Source: Fibrobacteria bacterium (lineage in GTDB: Bacteria; Fibrobacterota; Fibrobacteria; UBA11236). From it: DNA of 64,000 nt. The stretch spans positions 9,272-73,271 of the forward strand of contig JBJHDK010000004.1 in assembly GCA_050486505.1 (NCBI GenBank), in the 5' to 3' direction. This document shows positions 16,224 to 32,424 of the stretch, piece after piece. Under the pieces are notes generated by a model. That model made no database searches, was not told the origin of the DNA, and saw only the letters and a list, made by a program, of their open reading frames with translations. Numbering within the stretch: the first letter of the stretch is position 1; each line of letters opens with the position of its first letter. Made by a program: the position numbers and the translations under genes.

Positions 16224-17095
16224 GGGGTTGCCTTTCTCCGCGACGGAGTCCCGCGGACACCGGCCGATAGTTCGGCGCTTTCCCTGGCCGAACTCCGCGG
16301 CGTCAGATCTCCGAGCGGGAAAAATTTCTTGCGGTCGGGAAGGTCGCGAAACCGGATGCGAAACTCCTTGGGCGTGAGGCCCTTGTACTTCAGGAACTGT
16401 TTGGTGAAAAAACTGTGGTCGTAAAAGCCCGCCTTCAGTGCGACTTCAGAAATCGGCGAAGTGGTGTCAAGCAGCAGCCTGCATGCTGCATTCAGTCTGA
16501 CCATGGAAAGGTAGCGGCCCGGTGTCACCCCGAACTCCTGCTTGAAGCGACGGATCAGGTAGCCAGGGCTCAACCCGGCAACATCGGCCATTTCTTCGAG
16601 CCGGAGCGGCTTCGCGTAGTTCGTCATGATGTGGCGAACCACGGGTTCAAGGGTGCGGTAGGCCGACAACGCCGAATCCGCGGAGCGCAGGTCGCGGATG
16701 ATGCCCACAAGACCCTCGATCCCTCCATCCTTGCCGCGCAGGGGGATTTTGGTCGTCTGGTACCAATCCACCATGCCGTCCGCGGTGGGAATGATCTCGG
16801 GCTTGTTGATTTGCGGAGTCCCGGTCCGAAGAACCTCGCCATCGTCATGGCGGTAGGCTTCTGCCTGCAATGACCAAAAAAAATCATAGTCGGTCTTGCC
16901 GATAATCTGCTCCCCGCCCTCCAGGCCCATCTTTGTCCAGAAGCTGCGATTCGCCATCATGAAGCGGCCTTGCGCATCCTTGACGAATACATCGACATTA
17001 TCAGGAAAATGCTCCATGATTCTCTCGGTGATCTCGTTCTCGCGAAGCCTGTCGAGAAACGCGTGCCGAAGATCCTCCTCGCGACCAAGCGCCAT
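16220..17095 (-). CDS. PAS-domain AraC-family transcriptional regulator (copy 1)
   Basis: Same architecture as copy 2. Start MALGREE follows a GGAGG SD, and the gene overlaps copy 2 by ATGA. Confidence 0.9.
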   Translation of the reverse strand: MALGREEDLRHAFLDRLRENEITERIMEHFPDNVDVFVKDAQGRFMMANRSFWTKMGLEGGEQIIGKTDYDFFWSLQAEAYRHDDGEVLRTGTPQINKPEIIPTADGMVDWYQTTKIPLRGKDGGIEGLVGIIRDLRSADSALSAYRTLEPVVRHIMTNYAKPLRLEEMADVAGLSPGYLIRRFKQEFGVTPGRYLSMVRLNAACRLLLDTTSPISEVALKAGFYDHSFFTKQFLKYKGLTPKEFRIRFRDLPDRKKFFPLGDLTPRSSARESAELSAGVRGTPSRRKATP

Positions 17096-17228
17096 GCATC
17101 CCCTCCGAAGTACGACTGTCGAAATGATACCAATGTTATGGCGAGCGAGACCCGTAAGTGAGCGAGAATTTCCACGTGGGCGGCGCGACACCGGTTAAAT
17201 TCCCTCGTCCCGCAACCGGACGCGACTC

Positions 17229-18341
17229 ATGGATACTCGAACACACCACTCGCGACAGGCACTACGCCACATGGATGCGGCCTTCGCCGAAGCGTTGGCC
17301 GCCAAGGGGCGGACCCTGCCCAACCCGGCGGTGGGCGCAGTGCTGGTCAGGAACGGCCGCGTCGTGGGGCGCGGCGGGACGCGGCCGGCAGGACAGGCGC
17401 ACGCCGAAATCGTCGCGTTGGAGCAGGCTCGCGGCGAAGCGCGAGGAGCCACCCTGTACGTGACGCTCGAGCCCTGCCGGCACTTCGGCAGAACACCGCC
17501 CTGCACCCGCGCCATCATCGACGCCGGTGTGACGAGGGTCGTGGCCGCCTGCACCGACCCCAACCCCAAGGTCGCCGGAAATGGGCTTGCGGATTTGCGG
17601 CGCGCCGGCATCGAGGTCGAATGCGGACTGATGCGCGAGCGCGCCGAAACCTTCTACGCGGGCTTCTTCTTCTGGATCCGGAACGGGCGCCCACGCATCG
17701 TCGTCAAGGTCGCGCAAAGCCTCGACGGGCGCATCAATGCGCGACCGGGCACGGAAACCCCGCTCACCGGCCTTGAGGCGCACCACTTCGCACATGCCCT
17801 CCGCGCGAGCGCCGATGCGATCCTCATCGGGGGTACAACCCTGCGCAGCGACAACCCGGACCTGACCCCGCGGCTTGTTCCCGGTGCGCCGGCGCCGGAT
17901 GTGTTGGTCCTCACGCGCGACCGGATCCCAAGTCCCCGTCACAAGGTCTTCGCCCGCAACCGTCCGTCCCGAACCGTCGTGATTTCACCGGATCCCCCCC
18001 TTAACCTGCCTGCCCACGTGGATCTGGTCCGCATCCCCGGCAAAAGACCGCTTGTGCGGGAACTCCTGAACGTCTTCGCCGATCGCGGGTACCACGAGAT
18101 TCTTGTGGAGGGGGGGCGTGCGGTGTGGTCTCCTTTCCTGAACGGGGGACTCTGCGACGCGCTGCATCTCGTCACGGCGCCGGCGCTCCATCCGGGAGGG
18201 GAACGCTGGGATGAAGGTCTTCGGGCAGGATGGGTGAAACCCCTTGAATTTCATAGATTTACGCCGCTTGGCCCTGATGTTTGGGCCGAATTTCGACGGC
18301 GACCGGCCACCGCAACCGCGCGGAGGAGAACCGCGCCTTGA
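17229..18341 (+). CDS. ribD: Bifunctional pyrimidine deaminase/reductase RibD
   Basis: PNPAVGAVLV, HAE, TLEPCRHFGRTPPC, AQSLDGRI and ILVEGG. Confidence 0.95.
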   Translation: MDTRTHHSRQALRHMDAAFAEALAAKGRTLPNPAVGAVLVRNGRVVGRGGTRPAGQAHAEIVALEQARGEARGATLYVTLEPCRHFGRTPPCTRAIIDAGVTRVVAACTDPNPKVAGNGLADLRRAGIEVECGLMRERAETFYAGFFFWIRNGRPRIVVKVAQSLDGRINARPGTETPLTGLEAHHFAHALRASADAILIGGTTLRSDNPDLTPRLVPGAPAPDVLVLTRDRIPSPRHKVFARNRPSRTVVISPDPPLNLPAHVDLVRIPGKRPLVRELLNVFADRGYHEILVEGGRAVWSPFLNGGLCDALHLVTAPALHPGGERWDEGLRAGWVKPLEFHRFTPLGPDVWAEFRRRPATATARRRTAP

Positions 18342-18371
18342 CGCATTGAGTGAAAGGGCCCGGTACACATC

Positions 18372-19031
18372 ATGTTTACAGGGATCGTGCAGGAAACCGG
18401 TCGTGTCCGCGGGCTCTCTCCCCTTGGCGGAGCCGTGCGCTTTACGATTTCCGCTCCCGGGCTTTCCTCGCGGCTTGCCGTCGGTGACAGCGTTGCCTGC
18501 GACGGTGTCTGCCTGACGGTGGAGCGACTGGAGCGCGACGGATTCACCGTCTGCGCCGTGCCGGAAACGCTCGCGCGAACGACGTTGGGCCACCTGGCCA
18601 TGGGCTCGGCGTTGAACCTGGAGTCCGCGTTGACTCCCACGACGCCGATGGGCGGGCATTTCGTCCATGGTCACGTCGACGGCACATGCGAAGTGATCGA
18701 AATCCGCCCCTTGGGCGACGGGGAGGGGCGTGAAGTCACCGTGCGCCTGCCCGGGCCGTTCGCGCGTTACTGCGTGTACAAAGGCTCGATCTGTTTATCG
18801 GGCGTAAGCCTCACGATCGCCGCCGTGGAGGGGAGCTCCGTGCGAGTGGCCCTGATCCCGCACACGCTCTCCGCCACCACCTTGGGCAATGCAACGGTGG
18901 GGGACCTCCTGAACTTCGAAGTCGACATCCTGGCGAAATACGTGGAGCGTCTCGCGGGACGGGGCACGGGCTCGCAGCAGGCGTCGCTTGATGAGGCGGC
19001 GCTCAGGAAGTGGGGTTATGAAGTTTCATAG
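18372..19031 (+). CDS. ribE: Riboflavin synthase (alpha chain)
   Basis: MFTGIV start, GVCLTV, GGHFVHGHVDG, GVSLTI and NFEVDILAKYV. Confidence 0.95.
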   Translation: MFTGIVQETGRVRGLSPLGGAVRFTISAPGLSSRLAVGDSVACDGVCLTVERLERDGFTVCAVPETLARTTLGHLAMGSALNLESALTPTTPMGGHFVHGHVDGTCEVIEIRPLGDGEGREVTVRLPGPFARYCVYKGSICLSGVSLTIAAVEGSSVRVALIPHTLSATTLGNATVGDLLNFEVDILAKYVERLAGRGTGSQQASLDEAALRKWGYEVS

Positions 19032-20196
19032 CATCGCCGAGGCGATTTCGGACCTGAGGCGCGGACGATCCATCGTGGTGGTGGACGACAAAAACCGCGA
19101 GAACGAAGGCGACGTCGTCTTCGCTGCGTCCAAATCGACGCCCGCAAAAATCAATTTTCTCGCGAAGCACGCGCGCGGCCTGGTGTGCGTGGCGCTTTCG
19201 GCGGATCGCGTCGAGGCCCTCGGCCTGCCTCCGATGACCGACCAGAACCGGTCTCGCTACGACACGGCATTTACCGTGTCCGTCGAAGCGCGCGAGGGCA
19301 CGACCACGGGAATTTCGGCTTCCGATCGCAGCCTCACCGCACGCTTGCTGGCCGACGAGTCCTCGGGTCCGCGCGACTTCATCAGCCCCGGCCATGTGTT
19401 TCCAATCAAGGCGCGGCGCGGTGGCGTGCTCGTGCGTGCGGGCCATACCGAGGCCGCCGTGGATCTGGTGCAAATGGCCGGGCTCGGAAACGCCGGGGTG
19501 ATCTGCGAGATCATGAAAGAGGACGGGTCCATGGCCCGGCTTCCGGATTGCGCCCGATTTGCGCGCAAGCACGGACTGAAAATCATTTCAGTGGAAGACT
19601 TGATCCACTACCGCCACATGCGCGAAAAACAGGTGCGCGCCGCCGGTTCCTTCCGTTTGCCCACTCCGCATGGGGAGTTCGAGGCGCACGCCTTCGAAGA
19701 TCTTGTTCACGGTCGCATGCATTTGGCCCTCGTGCGCGGAGAGTTGTCCCAGACGCGCGCCGTCCCCGTGCGCGTGCATTCGGAATGCGCGCTCGGCGAC
19801 GTGTTCGGGTCCCGGCGGTGCGACTGCGCCGACCTGCTGCAGCAGGGGCTCCGTGCCATTGCCCGGGAAGGCGGCGTCTTCCTATATATGCGCCAAACCC
19901 ATTCCGAGGAGGCCTTCGGCCGCACCCTGCAAAAGTACGCCGCCGAGGACGCCCAACCGCGCTCCCGGGAAGCGAAGGGACGTTCCCAACACGGGGCCCC
20001 CATGGACGCCAGAACCTACGGCATCGGCGCGCAAATCCTCTTCGAGTTGGGGATCCGCCGCCTCAGCCTGCTGACCAACCATCCCAAGCGCATCCAGGGT
20101 CTTGAGGGTTACGGCCTCACCATCGTGAGGCAGGCGCCCCTGAGGGACGTAAAACCGGTCCGAACCCCGCGAGTCCGAAGCAAGGAGACAACATGA
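19018..20196 (+). CDS. ribBA: DHBP synthase fused to a divergent GTP cyclohydrolase II domain
   Basis: RibB motifs [26 protein letters not shown] and RAGHTEA. The C-terminal domain has VRVHSEC..CDC but lacks EGRGIG. Confidence 0.9.
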
Positions 20197-20654
20197 ACAT
20201 CCTCGAAGGCAATCTCAACGCGAACGGAAAATCCTTCGGGATCGTCGTGTCCCGATTCAACACCCTTGTCACGCAAGAACTGCTCAAGGGTGCGGTCGAC
20301 TGCCTCGTCCGCCACGGGGCCCGGGAGAAGGATATCACGGTGGCCTGGGTTCCCGGAGCCGGCGAGATCCCGCAAGTGCTCAGGCGTTTCGCCGCATCGG
20401 GCAAGTTCGACGCGGTCATCGCGTTGGGTTGTGTGATTCGCGGCGCCACGCCTCACTTCGACCAGGTCGTGCAGACCGCCGTGAAGGGGTTCGGTGGCGT
20501 CGCGGACGTCGGCGTCCCCGCCACCTTCGGGGTTCTCACCACCGAGAACCTGGAACAGGCGCTGGAACGGGCAGGCTCCAAGGCCGGGAACAAGGGCTGG
20601 GATGCCGCACTGGCGGCCATCGAACTGACCTCGCTTTGGAGCAAGCTGCCGTGA
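20193..20654 (+). CDS. ribH: 6,7-dimethyl-8-ribityllumazine synthase
   Basis: [35 protein letters not shown] and GNKGWDAA. Confidence 0.95.
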
Positions 20655-21085
20655 TCTCGCGCCGCAAGGGCAGAGAATTCGCCATGCAGGCGCTGTATGC
20701 GTCCGAAGTCGGGGCAGAGACCCTCGACAAGGCTGCGGAAACCCTCATGCAGGACGATCCCGTTTCTCCCGACATGCGCGACTACGGCATGCGATTGTGC
20801 CGCGTCGTGCGCACCCGCGCCGACGAGATCGACGCTCTCATCGCAGCCTGCGCCGAACGTTGGGATGTCGCGCGCATCGCCGTGGTGGACCGCATCATTC
20901 TACGCATCTCCGTGGCAGAACTCATGACCGAGCCCGATGTTCCCGCGAAGGTCTGCATCAACGAGGCGGTGGAAATCGCCAGAAAGTTCTCAACCGAAAA
21001 CAGCAGCCGCTTCGTGAACGGCGTCCTTGACGCCGTTTCCCGCAAGCTGGCTGATCTTCACAACGAACCCGCTCCGAAAAAGTAA
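20651..21085 (+). CDS. nusB: Transcription antitermination factor NusB
   Basis: GTG start overlaps the ribH stop. Motifs [30 protein letters not shown] and FVNGVLD. Confidence 0.94.
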
Positions 21086-21094
21086 GGAAGACGC

Positions 21095-23899
21095 ATGCTC
21101 AACGAAAAAAAGTTGGACGTCATTCTGGCGCTGACTGTATTCTTCGCCGCATTCTTCGTGTACCTGTCCACGATGGCACCCACAGTCTCCTGGTGGGACA
21201 CCGGGGAATGGATCGCCTCGTCGTATGTCCTGGGAAACCCCCACCCCCCGGGGAATCCCCTTTTCACCTTGTTGGGACGCGCCTTCGTCGTCGCCATGCC
21301 CATCTGGGAGAAAGCGGCGCGGATCAACTTCATCTCCGTGCTTACGATGGCCTTGAGCGCGATGGTCGCCTTCCTGTTCATCCTGAAGGCGATGCGCCTC
21401 ATTTTCAACAAGGGAGGACTCAACCGCTTCGCCCTGTATTCGGGCGCCGTCATCGGTGGTTTCCTGGTCGCATTCTCCGACACGGTCTGGTTCAGCGCGG
21501 TGGAAACCGCCGCGTACAGCCCGGCGATGCTGATCGTGATGCTCACTGGCCTCCTGAGCCTGCATTGGTACGCGCGGCGCGGCACCCCGGCCGCTGACCG
21601 GCTTCTCCTTCTCATCGCCTATATCGGCTTTCTGGGCGTCGGCGTGCACATCTTCGCGTTCATCACCATCCCCGTGATCGCGCTGTTCGTGCTCCTCGAC
21701 AAGGAGTCCCGGTCCAACATCCCGCTCATCCTTGCGGGCGTGCTGCTGCTGTCCGTCATTTACGACATCGGCAACTTCGTCTTCTACGCCGCCGCCTCCC
21801 TCGCATTCTGCGTCACGGGGTATCTGGTTGCCCGTGCTCCCGAATGGCGTCGGCGCTGGTCGCTCGCGGGCTGGCTGAGCCTTGCCGCCATTCTCGGGTT
21901 CTCCACCTACATCTATGCCCCGGTCCGTTCCCACACCAATGTGTTGATCGACGAGGGCGCCCCCCGCACATGGCCCCTGCTGAAGGAGTACCTGGAACGC
22001 AAGCAGTACGGTTCCGAATCGATGCTGCGGCGAGCCTTCCATCGCCGCGCCCAGATCGGCCACCAGATCCTGATCCACCCCCACATGGGCTACGGGGGCT
22101 ATATGCTCTCGCAATACTTCCCCTGGAAGGTTGGCGATCGCAGCGAGGAAACCGTGGTCACCACCCGGAACCTCCTCGGCAAGGAGCTTGTCTTCCCGGA
22201 GCTGTACCGCTCGCTGCAGGGGCGAACCGGAACCCAAATCGGGCTTTTCCTGCTTCTGCAGATCCCCTTCATCTGGGGAGTCCTGCTCGCTTACCGCCGC
22301 AACCGAAAAATCGGCGCGTTCATCGGCGCGCTGTACGTCGCGACCAGTTACGGCCTCATCTTCTACCTCAACTTCGCGGATGGCACGCGCATGGAACTGC
22401 GCGACTACCAGTGGTGGAAGAGCACGGGATTCGACCCGAACCAGCAACCTCCCCCGGTTCACATGGAGGTGCGCGAACGCGATTACTTCTTCACGCCCGG
22501 GTTCATGTACATGGGCATCCTGTTCGGCGTTTCGGCTGTCTTCCTGCTGAACTGGATCGCCTCCCGGCGCAGGTTGCTGCTGCGCCCGGCCGGCTTTGCC
22601 CTGATCGGCCTGGCCTTCGCTCTTCCCGTGTGGTCGAACTACCGTGAGCACGACCGCTCCCGCGACTTCGTGCCTTACGACTACGCCTACAACCTGCTGA
22701 ACTCCTGCCGTCCGAACTCGATCCTGTTCACCAACGGAGACAACGACACGTTCCCGCTCTGGTTCATGCAGCAGGTCGAGGGGATCCGTACCGACGTGCG
22801 CGTCGTGAACCTCTCGCTGGTGAACACCACCTGGTACATGCACCAGCTTTACGAGCACGAGCCGAAACTGAAAATCGGATTCACGCCCGAGGAGATCGAG
22901 AACCTCCGTCCGCAGCCGTGGCGCTTCCGCGGTCCGGTCGAGATCACGATTCCCGGAACGCAGATCCGCTACCAACTGGACCCCCTCCCTTACCTTCGCG
23001 TTCAGGACATCATGGTGCTGCACATCGTGCAAAACAACTTCCCCGAGCGCCCTGTTCACTTCGCCGTCACCATCGGCGGCAACAACGCGATGGGCCTTGA
23101 GAGATTCACGGTCATGGAAGGCATGGTGTATACCCTCGTCGAAGAGCCGCGCGATCGAGAAATCGACGTCGTCGCCACCGCCCGCCTCGTGGACTCTGTC
23201 TACCAGTTCCGCGGTCTCGGCGATCCCCGCGTGCACATCGACAAGACCACCGAGGGCTTGCTGACCAACTACTCCGCGACCAACTTCAGGCTGGCGGGGT
23301 GGGCACAGGACAGCCTCGAGAAAGTGATGCGGGAGCTGGAGCGCCTGCGCGGCCGCGATGGTCTGGGACGTGCCGAAACGGAGCGTCTTGCCGTCCTCGA
23401 AGAATCCCGCGAAGAAATGCTGGCCTTCGCCGAGCGCTACCTCGGGCTGAATGCGCGCATCCTCCCGGGTGAATGGCGCGTCCACTACTACCTGGGCCAG
23501 CTTTACCATCTCGCGGGCGAGCCCGGGAAGGCGGAATCGGCCTTCCGCGACGGCATGCGGACCCGCGGACCCGCGGCGAAGATTTTCGCCCTCAACCTGA
23601 TGCAGCTCTTCATGGATGCCGGGCGAAGCGACGAGGCCAAGGCCGTGCTTTCCGAAATGACGGTGCGTTTTCCCGAGGATCTTGAAGTCGCATACCGTCT
23701 CGCGGAGATGTACCAGCAGGAAGGCGACTTCACCCGCGCGCGCGACATTCTTTCGAGATGGCTGCGGGCGAATCCCAATCACGAGTACGCGCGGCCCATC
23801 GAACAGCAGCTCCGCCAGCTGGAGTCGATGCCGCAGCGGGAGCTCCCGCCTCCGTCGCACGAGATCGAGGCTGAGATTCCCGGCCTCCTTCCGGAGTAA
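21095..23899 (+). CDS. DUF2723 / TMEM260-like multi-pass GT-C glycosyltransferase with C-terminal TPRs
   Basis: PTVSWWDTGEWIA..HPPGNPL, RERDYFF, NGDNDTFPLW and VVNLSL. Many TM segments and a TPR-like tail. Confidence 0.85.
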   Translation: MLNEKKLDVILALTVFFAAFFVYLSTMAPTVSWWDTGEWIASSYVLGNPHPPGNPLFTLLGRAFVVAMPIWEKAARINFISVLTMALSAMVAFLFILKAMRLIFNKGGLNRFALYSGAVIGGFLVAFSDTVWFSAVETAAYSPAMLIVMLTGLLSLHWYARRGTPAADRLLLLIAYIGFLGVGVHIFAFITIPVIALFVLLDKESRSNIPLILAGVLLLSVIYDIGNFVFYAAASLAFCVTGYLVARAPEWRRRWSLAGWLSLAAILGFSTYIYAPVRSHTNVLIDEGAPRTWPLLKEYLERKQYGSESMLRRAFHRRAQIGHQILIHPHMGYGGYMLSQYFPWKVGDRSEETVVTTRNLLGKELVFPELYRSLQGRTGTQIGLFLLLQIPFIWGVLLAYRRNRKIGAFIGALYVATSYGLIFYLNFADGTRMELRDYQWWKSTGFDPNQQPPPVHMEVRERDYFFTPGFMYMGILFGVSAVFLLNWIASRRRLLLRPAGFALIGLAFALPVWSNYREHDRSRDFVPYDYAYNLLNSCRPNSILFTNGDNDTFPLWFMQQVEGIRTDVRVVNLSLVNTTWYMHQLYEHEPKLKIGFTPEEIENLRPQPWRFRGPVEITIPGTQIRYQLDPLPYLRVQDIMVLHIVQNNFPERPVHFAVTIGGNNAMGLERFTVMEGMVYTLVEEPRDREIDVVATARLVDSVYQFRGLGDPRVHIDKTTEGLLTNYSATNFRLAGWAQDSLEKVMRELERLRGRDGLGRAETERLAVLEESREEMLAFAERYLGLNARILPGEWRVHYYLGQLYHLAGEPGKAESAFRDGMRTRGPAAKIFALNLMQLFMDAGRSDEAKAVLSEMTVRFPEDLEVAYRLAEMYQQEGDFTRARDILSRWLRANPNHEYARPIEQQLRQLESMPQRELPPPSHEIEAEIPGLLPE

Positions 23900-25038
23900 T
23901 GCCCGTGCCGGAGGGGGCAACGCGTCCGCGCGTGCTGATCGTCAACTGGAGGGATATCCGCAACCCCGCGGCGGGCGGGGCGGAGGTTCACCTCCACGAG
24001 ACGGCGCGCAGGCTCGTGCACAACGGCTTTGACGTCGTGCAATATGCGCACGCCTTCCCCGGCGGATCCGCCGAAGACAATGTCGACGGCGTGGAAATCC
24101 ACCGGAAGGGGAACGCGTTCCTCTTCAATTACACCGCCCTGCTCAATCTGCGCCGATGGGTGCGCCGCCACCGCATCGATGTCGTGATCGACGACTCGAA
24201 CAAGGTTTGTTTCCTGCTCCCGTTGGTTTCGCCGGTTCCGGTCGTGGCGCGCTTCCATCATCTTTTCGGACGTTCCATTTTCCGGGAAGCCGGGTTTTTC
24301 CCCGCCCTGTACGTCTATCTCTTCGAGTGCATGATCGGCCCCGTGTATCGACGCACCCGCATCCTGACGGTATCGCCCAGTACACGCGCCGAATTGGAAG
24401 CCAAGGGCCTGCGGCGCATCACGATCGCGCTCAACGGCGTCGACCGCTCCGTGTACCGCGTGATTCCCGGAGCGGAGAAGATCCCTTTTCGCATCGTCCA
24501 CATTGGGCGCATCAAGCGCTACAAGAAGCTCGACACCCTTCTTCACGCGCTGGTGCATGTGCGGCACGAGTTCCCGCAGGCGCATCTGGTGGTCGGAGGC
24601 GGGGGGAACGACCTCCCCGCGCTGCGCAGGCTTGCGCTCTCGCTCGGAATCGGGGATGCGGTCGATTTCCGGGGGTTCGTTTCCGAGGAAGAAAAGGTGC
24701 GGCTTTACAACGAGGCCCAGGTGTTCGTGAACGCCTCCCTGAAGGAGGGCTGGGGCCTGACGTCCGTCGAAGCCAACGCCTGCGGGACACCCGTGGTCGC
24801 CACCGACGCGCCCGGTTTGCGCGACAGCGTGCGCCACGACGTGACCGGCCTGCTCGTGCCTCCCGATTCCCCGGACAAGTTCGCTGCCGCAATCGTCAGC
24901 CTCCTCCGCGACCCGGAGCGGCTCTCGCGCATGCGGGAAGCGGCCATGGAGTGGGCTGCCGCGCACGATTGGGACCGCGCCGCCGGGGTTACGCGCGACG
25001 TCCTGCTTGAGGCGGTTTCCGGGAGATCCGCGCCATGA
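23899..25038 (+). CDS. Glycosyltransferase family 4
   Basis: NWRD..P.AGGAEV, HIGRIKRYKK and EGWGLTSVEANACGTPVV (EX7E). Confidence 0.9.
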   Translation: MPVPEGATRPRVLIVNWRDIRNPAAGGAEVHLHETARRLVHNGFDVVQYAHAFPGGSAEDNVDGVEIHRKGNAFLFNYTALLNLRRWVRRHRIDVVIDDSNKVCFLLPLVSPVPVVARFHHLFGRSIFREAGFFPALYVYLFECMIGPVYRRTRILTVSPSTRAELEAKGLRRITIALNGVDRSVYRVIPGAEKIPFRIVHIGRIKRYKKLDTLLHALVHVRHEFPQAHLVVGGGGNDLPALRRLALSLGIGDAVDFRGFVSEEEKVRLYNEAQVFVNASLKEGWGLTSVEANACGTPVVATDAPGLRDSVRHDVTGLLVPPDSPDKFAAAIVSLLRDPERLSRMREAAMEWAAAHDWDRAAGVTRDVLLEAVSGRSAP

Positions 25039-26078
25039 CCACCGAAACCCCGAAGGAAGGCATGAAGCCGGAAGGGCGCCCCCCCGTCCCGGGCCGCTTC
25101 TGGTTCTGGACACGCGTCCTTGCCGTCATCGGCATCCTGTGGTGGGTGGTCGAGCGCAACGGCGGCGCACGCATCGCCCACGCGCTTCTCTCTGCTGATC
25201 CGCGTTGGGTCGCGGCGGCGGCGGCGGTCTTCTTTCTGTCGATCGTCCTCGCTGCCTGGCAATGGAGCCTGCTTCTGCGCATCCAGGGCATCCGTTTCGG
25301 ATTCAAGGCATGTTTCAGGTCTTATTACTCGGGAATGTTCCTCAACAATTTTCTTCCCGGCACCGTCGGGGGAGACGCCCTGCGCGTTTGGGACGTACAT
25401 CGCCACGAAACTTCGCTGGGACGCGCCGCCGCTTCGACCCTGCTTGACCGCCTGATGGGTTTCAGTGCGCTGTCGTTCTTCTCCCTGATCGCGCTCGCCA
25501 TCGAATTTCATCGGCAAGATCTCCCGCAGGGGTTGCTGGTGCACTTGTTGCAGGCGGTTGGGGCCGTTGCCGTCGCCTTTCTGTTTCTTCTTTTGCTGCT
25601 GCTCAGCAGGAGATTTTCGGGGGGACTCCACGCGATCATCCGTGCCCTCGGGTTGCAGCGACTCGGCAACATCCACGCCAAGGTGCAAGATGCACTGATG
25701 GCCTACAAGGCTCGCTGGGGAAGCATCGGCATCGTCTTCCTGGTCGCCTGCACCGTCCAGCTGCTGCGAATCTCCGTGCACGCCTTTTGCGCCATGGCGC
25801 TCGGGCTTTCGCTCGCACCGGTGTTTTTCTTTTCGTTCATCCCCTTGATCGCGCTGACTGCCGTGCTCCCCTTGAACGTGGGCGGTTGGGGCGTCCCGCA
25901 GGGGCTCGGCGCCTACCTTTACTCCCTGCCCGGAATCCTGGCCGTGTCGACGCTCGACCCGCGCGCCGCTGCGGCGGCGCTCGCCTTCCTTCCCACCGCC
26001 ATCGGCATGGTGGTGATGCTCGGCGGGGGTATTTACCTTGTCTTCCGTCCCTCACAACCATCCCGGAAGGCCATGTGA
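25035..26078 (+). CDS. Lysylphosphatidylglycerol-synthase TM-region (flippase-like) membrane protein
   Basis: NNFLPGTVGGDALR, LDRLMG and LPLNVGGWG. Highly hydrophobic. Confidence 0.8.
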   Translation: MTTETPKEGMKPEGRPPVPGRFWFWTRVLAVIGILWWVVERNGGARIAHALLSADPRWVAAAAAVFFLSIVLAAWQWSLLLRIQGIRFGFKACFRSYYSGMFLNNFLPGTVGGDALRVWDVHRHETSLGRAAASTLLDRLMGFSALSFFSLIALAIEFHRQDLPQGLLVHLLQAVGAVAVAFLFLLLLLLSRRFSGGLHAIIRALGLQRLGNIHAKVQDALMAYKARWGSIGIVFLVACTVQLLRISVHAFCAMALGLSLAPVFFFSFIPLIALTAVLPLNVGGWGVPQGLGAYLYSLPGILAVSTLDPRAAAAALAFLPTAIGMVVMLGGGIYLVFRPSQPSRKAM

Positions 26079-27028
26079 CGCGACTCAGTCTTGTTCTTCC
26101 CGCCTTCAACGAAGCGGAGAGCCTCCCCATCCTCCTGGAGGAGATCCGCTCGGTGTGCGAATCGGAGGGCATCGCCTACGAAGCCATCATCGTCGACGAC
26201 GGCAGCACGGACGGCACCTTCGAGCGCGCCACCGAGGCCGCCTCCCGCGACTCGCGCGTCCATGCCGTGCGCTTCCGGCGCAACAGCGGCAAGGCGGCGG
26301 CGCTTGCCGAAGGGTTCCGGCGCGCGCAGGGCGAGTACGTCATCACCATGGACGCCGACCTGCAGGACAACCCGTCGGAAATTCCGGAACTGATCCGAAT
26401 GCTGGAAGCCGGCTCCGACATGGTTTCAGGCTGGAAGAAAGTACGCCACGATCCCTGGCACAAGACTTTGCCCTCGAAGCTGTTCAACGCGGTCACGGCC
26501 ATGGCTTCGGGCCTGCCCCTGCACGACTTCAATTGCGGGCTCAAGGCCTATCGCCGCGAGGTGGTGGAAAGCATCGAGCTCTACGGCGAGTTTCACCGGT
26601 ACATCCCCGTGCTTGCACACTGGGACGGGTTCCGTGTCGAGGAGAAAGTCGTCGAGCATCGGGCACGGCGTTACGGAAACTCCAAATACGGTTGGGCGCG
26701 CCTGAGCAACGGATTGTTCGACCTGATCACCCTGCTCTTTCTTCACCGCTACACGCGCCGCCCGCTGCACCTGTTCGGCTTCGTCGGCATGTTGTTCACC
26801 GCGCTGGGGGTGGCGATTCTCGCCGGTTTCGGCATCAGCTGGCTCGCAACCGGAGCGCTGCACGTGCGGCCCCTGATGCTCGGCGGCGTCGCCTTCATGC
26901 TGGTGGGCGTTCAATTCGTTTCGCTCGGACTGCTGGGGGAGCTGGTGAACCAGCGCTTCGCCGCGTCATCCCCCCCGCCCCCCGTCGCCCGCGAGACCCC
27001 TGGAGCGCCGCCGGCCCGGTCCCGATGA
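26075..27028 (+). CDS. GT2 polyprenol-phosphate glycosyltransferase (ArnC/GtrB-like) with two C-terminal TM helices
   Basis: LPAFNEAESL, VDDGSTD, RRNSGKAAAL, MDADLQDNP, HDFNCGLK and HRYIP. Confidence 0.88.
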   Translation: MTRLSLVLPAFNEAESLPILLEEIRSVCESEGIAYEAIIVDDGSTDGTFERATEAASRDSRVHAVRFRRNSGKAAALAEGFRRAQGEYVITMDADLQDNPSEIPELIRMLEAGSDMVSGWKKVRHDPWHKTLPSKLFNAVTAMASGLPLHDFNCGLKAYRREVVESIELYGEFHRYIPVLAHWDGFRVEEKVVEHRARRYGNSKYGWARLSNGLFDLITLLFLHRYTRRPLHLFGFVGMLFTALGVAILAGFGISWLATGALHVRPLMLGGVAFMLVGVQFVSLGLLGELVNQRFAASSPPPPVARETPGAPPARSR

Positions 27029-27867
27029 AAATCTTGGTCGCGGGCTGCAACGGCCTGCTCGGCCAGAACCTGCTCCGTTGCGCTCCGGCCGGGACGGAAC
27101 TTCACGGACTGGCCCGGCATCCCGCGGCCCGGCTTCCGGGTCACCTGGCCTCCTTCCATTCCCGCGACATCACCGCCCCGGAAACATGGGACTTCGTTCG
27201 AGCGACGATCCGTCCCGAGCGGATCCTCAATGTCGCCGCGATCACCGATGTCGATGGCTGCGAACGTGCCCCTGTTGCATGTTCGCGCGTCAACCATGAC
27301 GCCGTGAGCCTGATGACCGGAACGGGAATCCCGGTCGTGCAGCTTTCAACCGATTACGTGTTCGACGGAAGCTCCGGCCCCTACCGGGAGGAGGATGCAA
27401 CGAATCCCCCCAATGCCTACGGCCGCATCAAGCTCGCCTCGGAGGCTCTTGCACTCGAGGGTTCTCCCGCCGGACTGGTGGTGCGCACCATGTGGGTTTG
27501 GGGCGAAGGAACGGGGACGAAGAAAAGCTTTCCGGCCTTTGTGGAGGAGACCTTGCGGGGTGGCGGCGTCGTGCGCGCCGTGACGGACCAGACCGGAAAC
27601 CCGACGTGCGCGGAGGGCCTGGCGCGGGCGATCTGGGCCTTGGTGACGGGGGGGTGCTCCGGCGTCTATCACGTTGCGGGGAGCACTCTGCTGAGCCGCT
27701 TCGACTGGGCCCGGCACATCGCGGAATCGCGAGGGCTCGATGCATCCCGGATCGTTGCCGTAACCACGGCGGAGCTCGGACTCGCCGCACCACGGCCCTT
27801 GCGGTCGGGACTGGTCAGCGACAAGCTGTTCCGCGACACGGGGACCAGGTTGCAGGGCATCGAATAG
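27025..27867 (+). CDS. RmlD-like NDP-4-keto-sugar reductase (extended SDR)
   Basis: GCNGLLG, STDYVFDG, YGRIK (YxxxK) and APRP. Confidence 0.85.
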   Translation: MKILVAGCNGLLGQNLLRCAPAGTELHGLARHPAARLPGHLASFHSRDITAPETWDFVRATIRPERILNVAAITDVDGCERAPVACSRVNHDAVSLMTGTGIPVVQLSTDYVFDGSSGPYREEDATNPPNAYGRIKLASEALALEGSPAGLVVRTMWVWGEGTGTKKSFPAFVEETLRGGGVVRAVTDQTGNPTCAEGLARAIWALVTGGCSGVYHVAGSTLLSRFDWARHIAESRGLDASRIVAVTTAELGLAAPRPLRSGLVSDKLFRDTGTRLQGIE

Positions 27868-27966
27868 TCCCGTCGCCCCCAGTGCCCCCTGGCCGTCGCG
27901 GAATCGCGGACGATCCCCATCTTTCGCCTGCTATATTAGGCCCTCACGTCATCAGACCGGACTTCC

Positions 27967-28674
27967 ATGCCCAGAACCCTCATCATCATCCCGACCTACA
28001 ACGAGATCGAGAATCTCCCGCTGATGATTCCCGCTCTGGAGGCGCTTGACCTCGGACTCGAGGTTCTCGTCGTCGACGATGGTTCGCCCGACGGCACCGG
28101 GGCCTGGGTCAGGGAGCAACAGGCCTCGAAGCCGCACCTGCACCTGATCGAGCGCTCCGGCAAACAGGGGCTCGGATCCGCGTACGTCGCGGGGTTCAAA
28201 TATGCGCTGGAGCGCGATTATGAACTCATCTTTGAAATGGACGCGGATTTCTCGCACGACCCGGCCTACATCAAGGATTTTCTCGCTGCGATCCACGACG
28301 CGGACCTCGTCATCGGCAGCCGCTACATCAACGGCGTCAATGTCGTGAACTGGCCCATGAGCCGCCTGCTTCTGAGCTACTTCGCCAACATGTACGCACG
28401 GCTGGTGACCGGGCTTCCGGTCCGCGACGCCACGGGCGGATTCAAGTGCTTCCGCGCCGACGCCCTGCGCAAGCTCGACCTCGACCGCATCAGCTCGGGC
28501 GGCTACTCTTTCCAGATCGAAGTGAACTACAAGCTGTGGAAGAAGGGTTGCCGCATCCGCGAAATCCCCATCATCTTCAAGGACCGCACGTTGGGTGCCT
28601 CCAAAATGTCGGGGAAAATCATCAAGGAAGCCCTGTTCCTGCTGGTGAAGCTGCGCCTTGGCGGAGGAAAGTGA
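27967..28674 (+). CDS. Polyprenol monophosphomannose synthase (Ppm1/DPM1-like GT2)
   Basis: IIPTYNE.EN, VVDDGSPDGT, GLGSAY, MDADFSHDP, DATGGFKC, GYSFQIE and F.DR..GASKM. Confidence 0.88.
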   Translation: MPRTLIIIPTYNEIENLPLMIPALEALDLGLEVLVVDDGSPDGTGAWVREQQASKPHLHLIERSGKQGLGSAYVAGFKYALERDYELIFEMDADFSHDPAYIKDFLAAIHDADLVIGSRYINGVNVVNWPMSRLLLSYFANMYARLVTGLPVRDATGGFKCFRADALRKLDLDRISSGGYSFQIEVNYKLWKKGCRIREIPIIFKDRTLGASKMSGKIIKEALFLLVKLRLGGGK

Positions 28675-30413
28675 GGACGGGGGACCAACCCTTCGACTCC
28701 ACTTCGGTAAACTCAGTGCGATACCCCCAGGACAAGAGCCAGGATGCGGGAGACGAGGAGGGACAAGGAGCACCCCCAACCTCTTCCCCCCTGCCTACTG
28801 CCTACCCAAGGGGCGTCTCTGTCATCATCGTCTCCTACAACGTCCGCGAATTTCTTGATGCCTGCCTGCAGAGCATCCGCCACGCTGCGGCGGGTTTCGA
28901 CGGAAAAATCGAGGTCATCGTGTTCGACAACGACTCGCACGATGGCACTGTATCGCTGCTGCGGCCACGTTGGCCCGATGTCACCTGGATCGCTTCGGAT
29001 CGCAACCTCGGCTTCGGATCAGGGTGCAACCGCGGTGCCGCAGTGGCCACGCAAGACCTGCTGCTGTTTCTCAACCCCGACACCTTGGTTCGCGAAGACA
29101 CCTTCCGGGTCATGCGCGACTTTTTCTCGGGACGCGGCGACGTGGGGGCGGCCGGCTGCAAGATCGTGAACCGCGACGGCAGCCTGCAGGCCGCAGCGAA
29201 GCGCAGTTTCCCCTCCCCGCGCGTAGCGGCCTACAAATTCATGGGCCTCGGCAGTCTTTTCCCGAAAAGCCGTGTTTTCGGCCGCTACAACCTGACCTAT
29301 CTCGACGAGAACGAGACTCATGAGGTCGACGCGATCTCGGGTTCCTTCATGTGCATGCGCGCCGAAGTGTTCCGCAAGGCGGGAGGCTTTGACGAGGACT
29401 TTTTCATGTACGGGGAAGATCTGGACCTCTGCTTCCGGATCAAATTGTTGGGGCTGCGCAACTACTACCACCCGGCCACTCAGGTGGTCCACTTCAAGGG
29501 CGAGAGCGCGAAAAGCCGTCCCTTCCGGTCCTTCCTGTATTTCCACGAGGCCATGATCCTCTTCGCCCGCAAGCATCTTGAACTGCACGCGCTGCCGGGA
29601 TTCCTGCTGAATGCCGGCATCATCGTCCTGGCCGCGGCCAATTTCATCTCTTCGCGCTTCCGCAAGTGGAGCCGCTGGCTCGCCGATCTCGTCGTGGTCA
29701 ACGGAGTGCTCGCTGCGACAGCCTACGCCTACCACAACATCCTCGACATCCGCCACGTCGCGACAGAGTACCCCGGCATGTATCTGCTGTCGCATTTACT
29801 CGTTTCCCTCGCGGTATTGCTTCCCTTCGCCTACATCGGCGAGTACGGCCGTCGCGTCGCACCTCCGCGCGCGGTTCTGTTCGCAGCCGCAGGCGGATTT
29901 CTTGCCTTCTTTTCCTTGAGCTACTTCCTCCACGAGCACGCCTATTCAAGGGTCGTCTTCGGAGTCACGGGTCTCCTGAGCGTCGCCCTGCTTTCGGGAT
30001 GGCGCTGGGTTCGGTCGCACGGAGGCAAGCTTTTCCGAAAGCTCATGGACGGTTCCCGGCGCGTCGCCATTCTCGGAACCGGGGCGCGGGCCCTCGCGCT
30101 CGCGGAACTCATCCACTCGGATCGCGTGGAGGGTTATGAATGCGTCGGCTTCATCCATTTTCCAAAGGGCCCGGCGCCTCCCGAGGTGCGGGCAAGCGTG
30201 ATCGGCGAAGTCGATTCCCTGCCGGGGTTGTCGAGAAAACTCGACCTCGCCGGAGTCATTGTTGCATTGGAGGGCGACGCATACCCCGCGGCACTCGAAA
30301 TCCTCGCGCAACAGGGCGCGCGAGCACTTGAGGTCAAGGTGCTGCTGGGGCCTCCGGAACCGGGGAAATTCAGCCTGATCGACCTTAATTTCGCGGATTC
30401 CCCGAAACAGTGA
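28671..30413 (+). CDS. GT2 glycosyltransferase fused to a membrane domain and a Rossmann-like domain
   Basis: VIIVSYNV, DNDSHDG, NLGFG, LNPDT, FFMYGEDLD and HFKGES, then TM helices and VAILGTG. Exact start uncertain. Confidence 0.85.
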   Translation: MRTGDQPFDSTSVNSVRYPQDKSQDAGDEEGQGAPPTSSPLPTAYPRGVSVIIVSYNVREFLDACLQSIRHAAAGFDGKIEVIVFDNDSHDGTVSLLRPRWPDVTWIASDRNLGFGSGCNRGAAVATQDLLLFLNPDTLVREDTFRVMRDFFSGRGDVGAAGCKIVNRDGSLQAAAKRSFPSPRVAAYKFMGLGSLFPKSRVFGRYNLTYLDENETHEVDAISGSFMCMRAEVFRKAGGFDEDFFMYGEDLDLCFRIKLLGLRNYYHPATQVVHFKGESAKSRPFRSFLYFHEAMILFARKHLELHALPGFLLNAGIIVLAAANFISSRFRKWSRWLADLVVVNGVLAATAYAYHNILDIRHVATEYPGMYLLSHLLVSLAVLLPFAYIGEYGRRVAPPRAVLFAAAGGFLAFFSLSYFLHEHAYSRVVFGVTGLLSVALLSGWRWVRSHGGKLFRKLMDGSRRVAILGTGARALALAELIHSDRVEGYECVGFIHFPKGPAPPEVRASVIGEVDSLPGLSRKLDLAGVIVALEGDAYPAALEILAQQGARALEVKVLLGPPEPGKFSLIDLNFADSPKQ

Positions 30414-30507
30414 ACGGACGCTCCTTGCTGGAGCCCCCTTCGACGACTAGGTTTTGGCCTCGCCGCGCGCGTAAAAAAGCCGCTCACGGCACAGGAAAGG
30501 ACAGGAC

Positions 30508-31464
30508 ATGCCCGTACCCAAGGGGCCCCATCTCGAGTTCGAACAGCCGGTGGTCGAGCTGGCGATGAAAATCGAGGATCTCCTCAAGTCAGGTGAAGTG
30601 ACAGGGTCCGATGTCAAGGCTCTCCAGGTCAAAAAGGAAGCCCTCCAGAAGAAAATCGCGGCGAAACTCTCGCCCTGGAACCGGATCGAACTGGCCCGGA
30701 GAGCGGGCCGCCCATTCACCCTGGATTACGTTCACAGCATCTTCGCCGACTTCGTCGAACTGCATGGCGATCGCCGCTTCGGGGATGACCCGGCCATGGT
30801 TTGCGGTCTCGCGCGCCTCGGTGAGCAAAGTGTCATGATCATCGGCCAGCAAAAGGGCCGCGACACCAAGGAAAGCATCCGTCGCAACTTCGGCATGGCT
30901 CACCCCGAGGGATATCGCAAGGCCCTGCGCTGCATGAAGCTCGCGGAGAAATTCCGCATCCCGGTGATATCATTCATCGACACTCCCGGGGCCTATCCCG
31001 GCCTCGGGGCGGAAGAACGAGGGCAGGGTGAGGCCATCGCCCTCAATCTCATGGAAATGGCCGTGCTTCGCGTCCCCATCATCGCCGTGGTCATCGGGGA
31101 AGGAGCCAGCGGGGGTGCACTCGGGATCGGCGTCGGTGACCGCCTGCTCATGCTTGAGAACGCATGGTACGGCGTCATCTCTCCGGAATCGTGCAGCGCC
31201 ATCCTTTGGGGCGACAGCAGCAAGAAACAGGAACTGAGCGGCACCATGAAAATCACTGCTGGGGACCTCAAGAACCTCAACGTGATCGATCGCATCATCC
31301 CCGAGCCCTTGGGCGGAGCCCACTGGGATCCCGATGCGATGTGCGGCACCTTGAAGCAAGTGCTCACGGAAGAGCTCTCTCTCCTGCGTGATGCCGACAT
31401 CGAAGCTCTTGTTGAAAAGCGCGGAGCGAAATATGCCGCCATCGCCCAGTTCGCGGAGAAATAG
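30508..31464 (+). CDS. accA: Acetyl-CoA carboxylase carboxyltransferase alpha subunit
   Basis: LHGDRRFGDD, RNFGMAHPEGYRKA, DTPGAYPG and GEGASGGAL. Confidence 0.96.
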   Translation: MPVPKGPHLEFEQPVVELAMKIEDLLKSGEVTGSDVKALQVKKEALQKKIAAKLSPWNRIELARRAGRPFTLDYVHSIFADFVELHGDRRFGDDPAMVCGLARLGEQSVMIIGQQKGRDTKESIRRNFGMAHPEGYRKALRCMKLAEKFRIPVISFIDTPGAYPGLGAEERGQGEAIALNLMEMAVLRVPIIAVVIGEGASGGALGIGVGDRLLMLENAWYGVISPESCSAILWGDSSKKQELSGTMKITAGDLKNLNVIDRIIPEPLGGAHWDPDAMCGTLKQVLTEELSLLRDADIEALVEKRGAKYAAIAQFAEK

Positions 31465-31472
31465 GAGGCGTC

Positions 31473-31721
31473 ATGCTCGACGGGAAACTTCTTGAAATCC
31501 TGTGTTGCCCCGAAACACGGCAAGACCTTGCGGTCGCCGGCGACGAGGTCATTTCAGCGCTCAACGCTCGCGTGGACGCCGGAACGCTGACAAACCGCGT
31601 GGGCGAGCCTGTCCGCGAAAAACTCGATGGCGGCTTGGTACGCGCCGACGGCAAATTTCTCTACCCCGTCCGCGAAGACATTCCCGTGATGCTCATCGAC
31701 GAAGCCATCCCGCTCTCCTGA
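31473..31721 (+). CDS. Trm112-family protein
   Basis: LLEILCCPET...YPVREDIPVMLIDEA. Confidence 0.85.
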   Translation: MLDGKLLEILCCPETRQDLAVAGDEVISALNARVDAGTLTNRVGEPVREKLDGGLVRADGKFLYPVREDIPVMLIDEAIPLS

Positions 31722-31749
31722 AGCCGGCCACGGCAACGCATCCACAGGC

Positions 31750-32424
31750 ATGACACGTCCAGCATCGACTCCGGATCAGCACGAGCCTCCAGGAATGGTG
31801 GCAGGGTTCGCCCGCACCGCGGAAGCCCTGCACCTGGACGGCGATACCGATGCCGCGCTGCAGTTGCTTGCGGAGGGAATCCGCCTGCGGCCCCGCGATG
31901 TGACGGGGCGTCTCGTGCTCGCGCGCGTCTGCCTCGACAGCGGACGGCGGGGCGAAGCCGTCGAGTGGCTTGAGAGTGTGTTGCGTGCTGATCCGGACTG
32001 CCCGGCGGCTCTCGTACAATTGGCCGAATTGCGCGCCGATGCGGAAACTGCGAGGTACAGAAAACGGGCCCTTGCGCGCGAGCCTTGGGACGAATCCGAA
32101 AGTCTTTCCACGAACACGCCGAATGTCGACCAGACACCCGCGAGCCCCGAACTCGAGTCGGCTCCCGCACCGATACCCCATGTTCTACCCGTGCAAGAGG
32201 ACGAGGAGCTTCCCGAAGACGAAGATCCCGCAAATCTTCCGCACATTGCCACGGCCACTCTGGCCGAGATATATTTCCAGCAGGGCCTGAAAGAGCAGGC
32301 AGCGCAAATTTACCGCCTGATTTTGGAGCGGCATCCAGGGGACGCTTCCGCGAGGGAACGCCTTGAGGTGATTGAAACTTCCATTGAGGGGCCCGCTCCG
32401 CGGGCAACGGACGAAAACGGTTAG
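31750..32424 (+). CDS. TPR protein with acidic/Pro-rich linker
   Basis: N-terminal TPR helices, low-complexity linker and C-terminal TATLAEIYFQQG..A.QIY motif. Confidence 0.7.
   Translation: MTRPASTPDQHEPPGMVAGFARTAEALHLDGDTDAALQLLAEGIRLRPRDVTGRLVLARVCLDSGRRGEAVEWLESVLRADPDCPAALVQLAELRADAETARYRKRALAREPWDESESLSTNTPNVDQTPASPELESAPAPIPHVLPVQEDEELPEDEDPANLPHIATATLAEIYFQQGLKEQAAQIYRLILERHPGDASARERLEVIETSIEGPAPRATDENG

Follow-up and report, generated by a model that had tools for sequence, protein, structure and literature searches.

Which enzyme attaches the first sugar in the general protein O-glycosylation of the Bacteroidota and their relatives? This system attaches a core of a hexose and a deoxyhexose (in most cases Man-Rha) at D-(S/T)-x sites, and the Fibrobacterota show a similar sequon enrichment; a recent review lists the core flippase, oligosaccharyltransferase (OTase) and ligase as undiscovered and suggests homologues of O-mannosylation enzymes as a search target (PMC12871550). 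The OTase, the core glycosyltransferases and the core flippase have eluded identification for more than 15 years (PMC12871550, bioRxiv 10.64898/2026.07.27.740950). We analysed a stretch of 64,000 nucleotides from a Fibrobacteria bacterium (GenBank GCA_050486505.1, contig JBJHDK010000004.1, positions 9,272 to 73,271; hereafter the window), in which a cluster of seven genes encodes a DUF2723 transferase of the family of human TMEM260, along with a mannose-lipid synthase, a flippase-like protein and a rhamnose-pathway reductase. We propose, with about as much confidence as doubt, that this cluster groups the core machinery of a general D-(S/T)-hydrophobic O-glycosylation of the Fibrobacterota–Chlorobiota–Bacteroidota (FCB) group, in which DUF2723 would be the initiating transferase that adds the first sugar. 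The DUF2723 protein appears to be a strong candidate for the missing first step of Bacteroidota-type protein glycosylation, and a protein is its likeliest acceptor. Family, fold and glycosylation system have all been described before; the candidate novelty is the link between them.

A gene cluster between nusB and accA

We found seven open reading frames (ORFs), all on the + strand at 21095-30413 and overlapping for the most part. An earlier reading of the stretch, made from its letters and ORFs (the sequence-only reading), had described such a co-oriented run beginning 9 nt after nusB, and the ORFs are indeed at these places, with the DUF2723 start at 21095 and the nusB stop at 21085. The proteins of the window were assigned to families with Pfam and NCBIfam, and 10 Pfam families were matched at E 0.01. 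The features are as follows.

21095..23899, + strand: DUF2723/PF11028 (TMEM260-family) GT-C transferase, 934 aa (Pfam, PDB sequence match, AlphaFold, fold search)
21197..21199, + strand: codon of D35, equivalent to TMEM260 D52 (donor positioning); H50, equivalent to H67, is next, in HPPG (HMMER alignments)
22739..22741, + strand: codon of D549 in NGDNDT, equivalent to TMEM260 D441, the catalytic base (alignment)
23192..23200, + strand: D700-S701-V702, a Bacteroidota-type sequon in the periplasmic lobe and candidate self-glycosylation site (sequon scan)
23309-23317, + strand: D739-S740-L741, second sequon of the DUF2723 protein (sequon scan)
23899..25038, + strand: GT4 glycosyltransferase, predicted to be cytoplasmic (Pfam, hydropathy)
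25035..26078, + strand: LPG_synthase_TM (TIGR00374 flippase-like) membrane protein, candidate polyprenol-phosphate-sugar flippase (Pfam PF03706, NCBIfam)
26075..27028, + strand: ArnC/GtrB/PgfS-like GT2, candidate synthase of a second polyprenol-phosphate-sugar (PDB match, NCBIfam)
27025..27867, + strand: RmlD-like dTDP-4-keto-6-deoxysugar reductase (Pfam, TIGR01214, PDB)
27967..28674, + strand: Ppm1/DPM1-type polyprenol-phosphate mannose synthase of the soluble type, 235 aa (PDB DPMS match)
28671..30413, + strand: GT2 (WbbL/rhamnosyltransferase-like) fused to a WbaP/WcaJ-type N-terminal module (Pfam, NCBIfam)
20651..21085, + strand: nusB, last gene of a ribD-ribE-ribBA-ribH-nusB run; conserved upstream context, outside the pathway (Pfam, NCBIfam)
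30508..31464, + strand: accA; conserved downstream context, outside the pathway (Pfam, NCBIfam)

The GT4, LPG_synthase_TM, ArnC/GtrB-like and RmlD-like ORFs overlap successively by 1-4 nt, and a gap of 99 nt separates the RmlD-like ORF from the Ppm1/DPMS-like gene. The start codon of the GT2 fusion is uncertain, the most likely one being the GTG at 28671, which overlaps the Ppm1 stop; the fusion ends at 30413, 94 nt before accA. The run is embedded in a Fibrobacterota housekeeping stretch from ribD to accA, and its G+C content resembles that of the remainder of the window. A promoter and terminator scan was uninformative, with 5 promoter-like sites against 2.5 expected and none within 17021-32245.

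As the sequence-only reading had noted, no Wzx, Wzy, Wzc, ABC exporter or WaaL family was matched by Pfam or NCBIfam among the seven proteins, and a wzx/wzy polysaccharide locus was rejected because the cluster contains no such genes. The same searches found neither metG nor wzx in the cluster. This excludes only an identity with the LFG locus (metG, wzx and glycosyltransferases), since that locus makes the outer glycan and the core machinery is placed outside it (PMC12871550). GtrA, an ArnE/F-type flippase and an ArnT/GtrII-type GT-C likewise had no match among the seven proteins in Pfam and NCBIfam, and rmlABC and a second GT-C are absent from the cluster.

The TMEM260-type transferase

The DUF2723 protein matches the TMEM260-like family PF11028 with 128 bits against a cut-off of 24.2, and has tetratricopeptide repeats (TPRs) at residues 795-899 according to Pfam. 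The WWDTGE, HPPG and NGDNDTFP motifs and the TPR tail reported by the sequence-only reading are all present. Human TMEM260 is the only non-TPR match in solved sequences (PDB 9rql, E 4e-17; 2e-30 with a profile); no ArnT sequence is among the six PDB sequence matches, and Pfam gave no PMT or PMT_2 match at E 0.01. The AlphaFold model (mean pLDDT 91.7, pTM 0.88) consists of a membrane GT-C core, a Rossmann-like lobe with NGDNDT and C-terminal TPRs, the last with fold matches at residues 791-912. Its best fold match is STT3 (Z 23.2, root-mean-square deviation (rmsd) 4.6, 439 residues aligned), and it also matches ArnT (Z 21.8, rmsd 4.7, 440 aligned), Pmt4 (Z 20.8, rmsd 4.0, 367 aligned) and PglB (Z 19.3), while a TMEM260 chain was listed in neither of the two fold searches. 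These Z scores do not discriminate between GT-C families. These results bear out both the GT-C fold and the kinship to TMEM260 that had been supposed. The fold is common to STT3/PglB and the DUF2723 protein, but there is no sequence match to PglB or PglL, and neither a flippase of the Wzx or ABC kind nor a catalytic phosphoglycosyl transferase domain is encoded in the cluster.

The ArnC/ArnT, GtrABC and streptococcal Pgf systems combine a polyprenol-phosphate-sugar synthase, a flippase and a GT-C enzyme. The window cluster also encodes an ArnC/PgfS-like GT2, but it has no GtrA or ArnE/F, it has two donor synthases, and its GT-C is of the TMEM260 type with TPRs. We consider it quite unlikely that the locus is a mixed envelope-glycan cluster in which three such components decorate lipopolysaccharide, lipid A or another glycolipid in the manner of ArnC/ArnEF/ArnT or GtrABC. 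ArnT scores no more than about 1.5 Z below the top fold match, and ArnC-like and WbbL-like genes are both in the cluster; the sequence kinship, however, is to TMEM260, and the peptide-facing base D549 and the TPRs are retained.

We then compared the active site with that of TMEM260. In the human enzyme, D441 is the catalytic base, the Asp of the WD loop (D52) positions the donor, D52, H67, R264 and Y267 are required, R355A leaves about 20% of the activity, and E466 contacts the -1 residue before the acceptor (bioRxiv 10.64898/2026.03.17.711096). HMMER alignment to TMEM260 pairs D35 with D52, H50 with H67, R462 with R355 and D549 with D441, whereas R302 and Y305, in a region not aligned by HMMER, match R264 and Y267 by their i, i+3 spacing and their invariance. 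Among 88 FCB sequences, conservation is 81/82 for D35 (counting those with a residue at the column), 84/84 for R302, 85/85 for Y305 and 85/86 for R462. D549 is kept in 70/70 (alignment A1). The equivalent of E466 is Ser574, with Ser in 132 of 138 HMMER-found homologues, which may be compatible with an Asp at -1 of the acceptor. For these two residues, alignment A1 and the 138 homologues were used instead of the 78 loci described below, where the patterns used for the scan, TNGDNDTF and DVR[VI]VNLSL, make their conservation partly circular. The sequence-only reading had asked whether the Asp of WDTGE aligns with the catalytic loop: this residue (D35) does have an active-site counterpart in D52, but the base is D549 in NGDNDT. 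Judged from its sequence and model, the DUF2723 protein has a GT-C fold and the residues that TMEM260 needs, with R302 and Y305 placed by spacing only.

Human TMEM260 (CAZy GT117; PMC10214176) thus has in common with the window protein PF11028, the GT-C core, the Rossmann-like lobe and the TPRs. The two differ in length (934 aa against about 707 aa) and in the predicted location of the window protein, a bacterial inner membrane. NGDNDT, Ser574 and Ala139 stand in place of RGDLPG, E466 and E144 (in the family motif EAEVY; the sequence-only reading overlooked this last change), and the TPR regions do not align in HMMER. The window protein is, in addition, encoded with donor synthases. TMEM260 is domain-selective, its TPRs recruit the substrate, and its mannose on IPT domains is not extended (bioRxiv 10.64898/2026.03.17.711096). 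The selectivity and TPR recruitment of TMEM260, along with two DUF2723 subclades and tandem paralogues, would agree with an O-mannosyltransferase that has a narrow, TMEM260-like domain target and is independent of the D-S/T system, the explanation nearest to the sequence-only reading. We find this improbable, since the peptide-contacting palm is unlike that of TMEM260 in the two positions just named (NGDNDT and S574), a general system would better suit its essentiality and its conservation across FCB phyla, and the rhamnose link agrees with the core already known.

The named close homologues of the DUF2723 protein are proteins of Fibrobacteria metagenome-assembled genomes, and in our tree it branches with Fibrobacterota. 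It is 29-34% identical to Parabacteroides DUF2723 proteins, and no DUF2723 match was found in a phage collection. A DUF2723 gene in a Bifidobacteriales-titled bin (L007 6370-9525) branches within Fibrobacterota, and the bin is probably mislabelled. Tandem DUF2723 pairs occur in loci L021, L022, L032 and L043; in the first three, one copy carries three sequons in its C-terminal lobe and its partner at most one.

Distribution, essentiality and sequons

We investigated the genetic loci of DUF2723 in one genome scan, from which the best 80 of at least 604 stretches gave 78 distinct loci that are not independent of each other. They come from Fibrobacterota, Latescibacterota, Zixibacteria, Eisenbacteria, KSB1, Marinimicrobia, Calditrichota, Gemmatimonadota, Ignavibacteria, Chlorobia and Bacteroidota-labelled bins. 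Genes on the same strand and within 10 kb of DUF2723 were counted as partners. At least one window partner is found in 29 of the 78 loci (GT4 in 17, Ppm1 in 13, the LPG_synthase_TM gene in 11, the GT2 fusion in 10, the ArnC-like gene in 9 and RmlD in 7), and some glycosylation gene in 51; nusB is present in 13 and accA in 8. Restricting the count to the 57 loci that extend 5 kb or more downstream leaves 22 with a partner and 12 with Ppm1. The neighbourhood of DUF2723 with Ppm1, to which the sequence-only reading had pointed, and that with the flippase-like gene therefore extend across phyla, and Ppm1 is linked to both DUF2723 subclades (6 loci of the EVR type and 7 of the QPR type). The whole order from ribD to a TPR gene is repeated in another Fibrobacterota genome (L006). 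This repeated order, and the recurrence of parts of it in other FCB phyla, indicate an arrangement beyond chance, and the idea that the cluster is special to its source genome was rejected. In L030, DUF2723 and a GT2 gene are followed by a full rml set (rmlA/B/C-like genes and rmlD). A second GT-C is present in L012 and L018 (PMT_2) and in L024 (a YfhO-like gene, weakly matched and below the Pfam threshold). In the three annotated Bacteroidales loci, the gene next to DUF2723 encodes a polysaccharide deacetylase. A DUF4837 gene lies inside the DUF2723-to-Ppm1 cluster in 8 loci, including L032 (8030-9106) and L066 (13598-14626).

Several of the same gene families are called essential or growth-defective in Bacteroidales, where counterparts were matched by annotation, with sequence similarity checked against Parabacteroides proteins only. 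In transposon sequencing of B. fragilis P207, DUF2723 is essential by the hidden Markov model (HMM) and uncertain by the Gumbel method, with 7 of 146 sites hit, and the gene downstream of it is non-essential; Ppm1 is essential by Gumbel with a growth defect by HMM, and rfbD and one of three flippase-like genes are essential (PMC10790697). In P. gingivalis, the DUF2723 gene PGN_0192 is listed as essential and carries no polar flag, though the 25 genes in Table S3 of Klein do not include it; the K07027 flippase-like and K00721 DPM1-type genes are essential in both P. gingivalis and B. thetaiotaomicron (PMC3547785). DUF2723 proteins are themselves O-glycosylated inner-membrane proteins in P. gingivalis, P. 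intermedia and T. forsythia. P. gingivalis mutants with hexose-only (+162) and +308 species have been described (PMC8729774), which is compatible with a stepwise transfer and does not prove it. In the openly licensed PMC and bioRxiv literature we found no paper that gives the function of any bacterial DUF2723 protein or proposes it as this OTase (subscription papers could be missed), and no experiment on the dependence of glycopeptides on a DUF2723 gene.

About half of the non-cytoplasmic proteins in the Bacteroidota system carry the motif. In the periplasmic C-terminal lobes of DUF2723 proteins, we counted 313 D-S/T-[ALVIMT] sequons over 123 columns against 118.5 +/- 10.0 after shuffling, an observed/expected ratio (O/E) of 2.64. 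Five control motifs gave O/E 0.85-1.21, and D-S/T-[KRHWYP] gave 0.59. The lobes were those of the 139 among 150 representatives (50% identity clusters of which the taxonomy is not known) in which the motif is present and followed by 200 residues or more. The DSV sequon at D700 is kept in 46 of 70 homologues. In the FCB loci, 180 predicted exported proteins show O/E 1.51 against 1.04 for 441 cytoplasmic ones (p 5e-7), by a hydropathy rule that misplaced at least one protein (a Ppm1). The SecDF protein of the window (12680-15313) has four D-S/T sequons in its periplasmic domains and is a candidate substrate.

Several observations weigh against DUF2723 as the initiating transferase of this system. 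Residue 139 is Ala in the window protein and Glu in 76 of 82 FCB sequences. The window protein falls in another subclade than the Bacteroidales DUF2723 proteins, and Ignavibacteria are in both subclades, so a strict orthology with the Bacteroidales proteins is not established. No glycosylation gene is nearby in 27 of the 78 loci, and none of the five Bacteroidota loci has glycosylation neighbours. In 14 loci, mostly of Ignavibacteria, DUF2723 is instead paired with a following GT9 gene (heptosyltransferase family), as in L037 (13125-14216, directly after DUF2723) and 13 others alike; these GT9 genes, and a Wzx-family gene in L081, speak for the glycolipid decoration considered above. The B. 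fragilis library covers less than a quarter of the TA sites (PMC10790697), and the essentiality of RmlD and Ppm1 could stem from other glycans. T. forsythia has DUF2723 yet a reducing-end galactose, so mannose is not guaranteed. As for the sequons, the window's own 10 exported segments hold 8 against 3.8 expected (p 0.19 compared with cytoplasmic proteins), a Bacteroidota positive control was not enriched (38 against 38.5, O/E 0.99), and 33 exported E. coli proteins gave O/E 1.25, with other FCB proteins above that at p 0.049. The enrichment suggests that the system is likely present in these organisms and does not name its enzyme.

Two substitutions, C36T (21200-21202) and E139A (21509-21511), are common only to the nearest homologue (P0001) among 70 and might mark the window copy as a weakened or diverging paralogue of an active copy elsewhere in the genome. 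This seems highly improbable: the ORF is intact, it keeps the conserved position and all of the mapped essential residues, and four Chlorobiaceae loci, with Gly at residue 139, also lack the Glu.

Another GT-C protein, YfhO, has been predicted to be the OTase from its HHpred similarity to Pmt4, its conservation, essentiality and topology (bioRxiv 10.64898/2026.07.27.740950). Like DUF2723, it is an essential, polytopic, PMT-like inner-membrane protein, with essentiality in B. fragilis, P. gingivalis and B. thetaiotaomicron (PMC10790697, PMC3547785). We therefore give a low but appreciable probability to YfhO being the initiating OTase, with DUF2723 as a second essential GT-C that either acts in the same pathway, where it would add a branch or carry out the ligation of the outer glycan, or belongs to a parallel pathway of the envelope; both this evidence and the predicted role of YfhO also count against our proposal. 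The weakly matched YfhO-like gene of L024 and the PMT_2 genes of L012 and L018 also count in favour of this reading. Yet the OTase role of YfhO is itself a prediction, YfhO belongs to PF09586, for which the available part of the preprint cites no characterised protein-mannosylating member, and it is absent from the window cluster. The only characterised member of the DUF2723 family moves mannose to Ser/Thr, its palm base and TPR architecture are kept, and Ppm1 stands beside DUF2723 in 13 of the 78 loci against one for a YfhO-like gene. PGN_1968, annotated as 'putative YfhO/PMT family', is essential in P. gingivalis, while the YfhO preprint gives YfhO as absent there.

Partner proteins and a proposed pathway

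We then investigated the other six proteins. The Ppm1-like protein matches PDB DPMS (E 2.4e-31) and is about 51% identical to both Bacteroidales and actinobacterial (Tsukamurella) proteins annotated as 'polyprenol monophosphomannose synthase'. Actinobacterial Ppm1/Pmt O-mannosylation uses a polyprenol-phosphate-mannose donor, and the Ppm1-type neighbour favours such a donor for the DUF2723 protein as well. The cluster shares a Ppm1-type synthase with that system (GT39), but its transferase belongs to PF11028 rather than PMT/PMT_2, and its host is diderm. The RmlD-like protein matches RmlD_sub_bind in Pfam and TIGR01214 with 196 bits, under the cut-off of 224, and would supply dTDP-rhamnose; with this caveat on RmlD, the Ppm1-type and RmlD-like genes may provide for a hexose-deoxyhexose (Man-Rha) core. 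The LPG_synthase_TM protein is assigned to PF03706 by Pfam and NCBIfam, and an Atlas search gave nothing further. In 120 listed fusions with Ppm1 relatives, we counted PF03706 in 5 and GtrA in 42. Family annotation and these fusions make the protein a candidate flippase; the fusion evidence holds at the family level only, because BLAST finds no similarity between the window protein and the LPG_synthase_TM domain of P0276, one of the Ppm1 fusions. The ArnC-like GT2 matches PDB ArnC (E 1.6e-54), scores below all NCBIfam cut-offs and has two C-terminal helices. PF00535 was matched in three of the seven proteins. The GT4 protein has no transmembrane helix by hydropathy. The GT2 fusion has a non-catalytic N-terminal membrane and CoA_binding_3 module without a catalytic Bac_transf domain, of which a longer homologue in L017 keeps a weak match. 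It is 41% identical to a recR-adjacent GT2 of Parabacteroides, and it may serve another undecaprenyl-linked glycan.

These families suggest the following pathway. The Ppm1-like enzyme would make polyprenol-phosphate-mannose in the cytoplasm, and the LPG_synthase_TM protein would flip it. The DUF2723 protein may then bind the lipid donor through D35, H50, R302, Y305 and R462, D549 would activate the Ser or Thr of a D-S/T-x peptide that the periplasmic lobe and the TPRs hold in an extended form, and the hexose would be transferred with inversion. The rhamnose derived through RmlD could be added on the lipid before flipping, by the GT2 fusion. Alternatively, a second polyprenol-phosphate-sugar, made by the ArnC-like enzyme, could be used by a second GT-C, for example YfhO, encoded elsewhere.

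GT4 and WbbL-like GT2 enzymes use nucleotide sugars on the cytoplasmic side. For this reason the GT4 and GT2 proteins cannot extend a glycan on a periplasmic protein, as the sequence-only reading had them do, and this role was rejected on topology; the GT4 protein and the GT2 fusion would act on lipid-linked precursors only. Its description of the pathway as complete is likewise doubtful: with rmlABC and a second GT-C missing and a possible other role for the GT2 fusion, the pathway in the cluster is probably incomplete. The system is distinct from PMT and PglB systems, as the same reading held, in having no sequence match to either. Rather than a new system in its own right, it probably represents the core machinery of the one known in Bacteroidota and Fibrobacterota: the host is of a sister phylum with motif enrichment, and the gene content fits a Man-Rha core made on lipid, flipped and transferred in the periplasm. 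The Fibrobacterota side of that system is a prediction from genes and motifs.

A wider proposal, which we hold more tentatively, is that DUF2723 is the initiating O-mannosyltransferase across the FCB group, including gut and oral Bacteroidales, and thus a bacterial counterpart of TMEM260. The cluster would then be an ancestral operon that names the donor synthase and the flippase, and monosaccharides would be transferred stepwise from lipids, by DUF2723 and then a second GT-C such as YfhO, not en bloc. That the same families are scattered in Bacteroidales would explain why the pathway has gone unrecognised. The cluster yields a list of genes (PGN_0192, PGN_0249 and PGN_1026 of P. gingivalis; PTOS_000073, 000644, 002697 and 001097 of B. 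fragilis P207) and one catalytic residue, and it offers an alternative or a complement to the YfhO prediction. If true, the glycosylation system extends across the FCB group, the disease gene TMEM260 gains a model in bacteria, and the cluster points to envelope enzymes that are essential and group-specific and to a tool for sequon-directed glycoengineering.

Elsewhere in the window, accA is followed by a Trm112-like gene and a TPR gene (31473-32424), both of which are also found in L006. Two tandem PAS plus AraC regulators (15405-17191, - strand) are divergent from ribD. A PIN and Phd/YefM toxin-antitoxin pair (1491-2230, - strand) lies directly downstream of a nuoI-like gene in what we take, from the translations, to be an NADH dehydrogenase (nuo) run.

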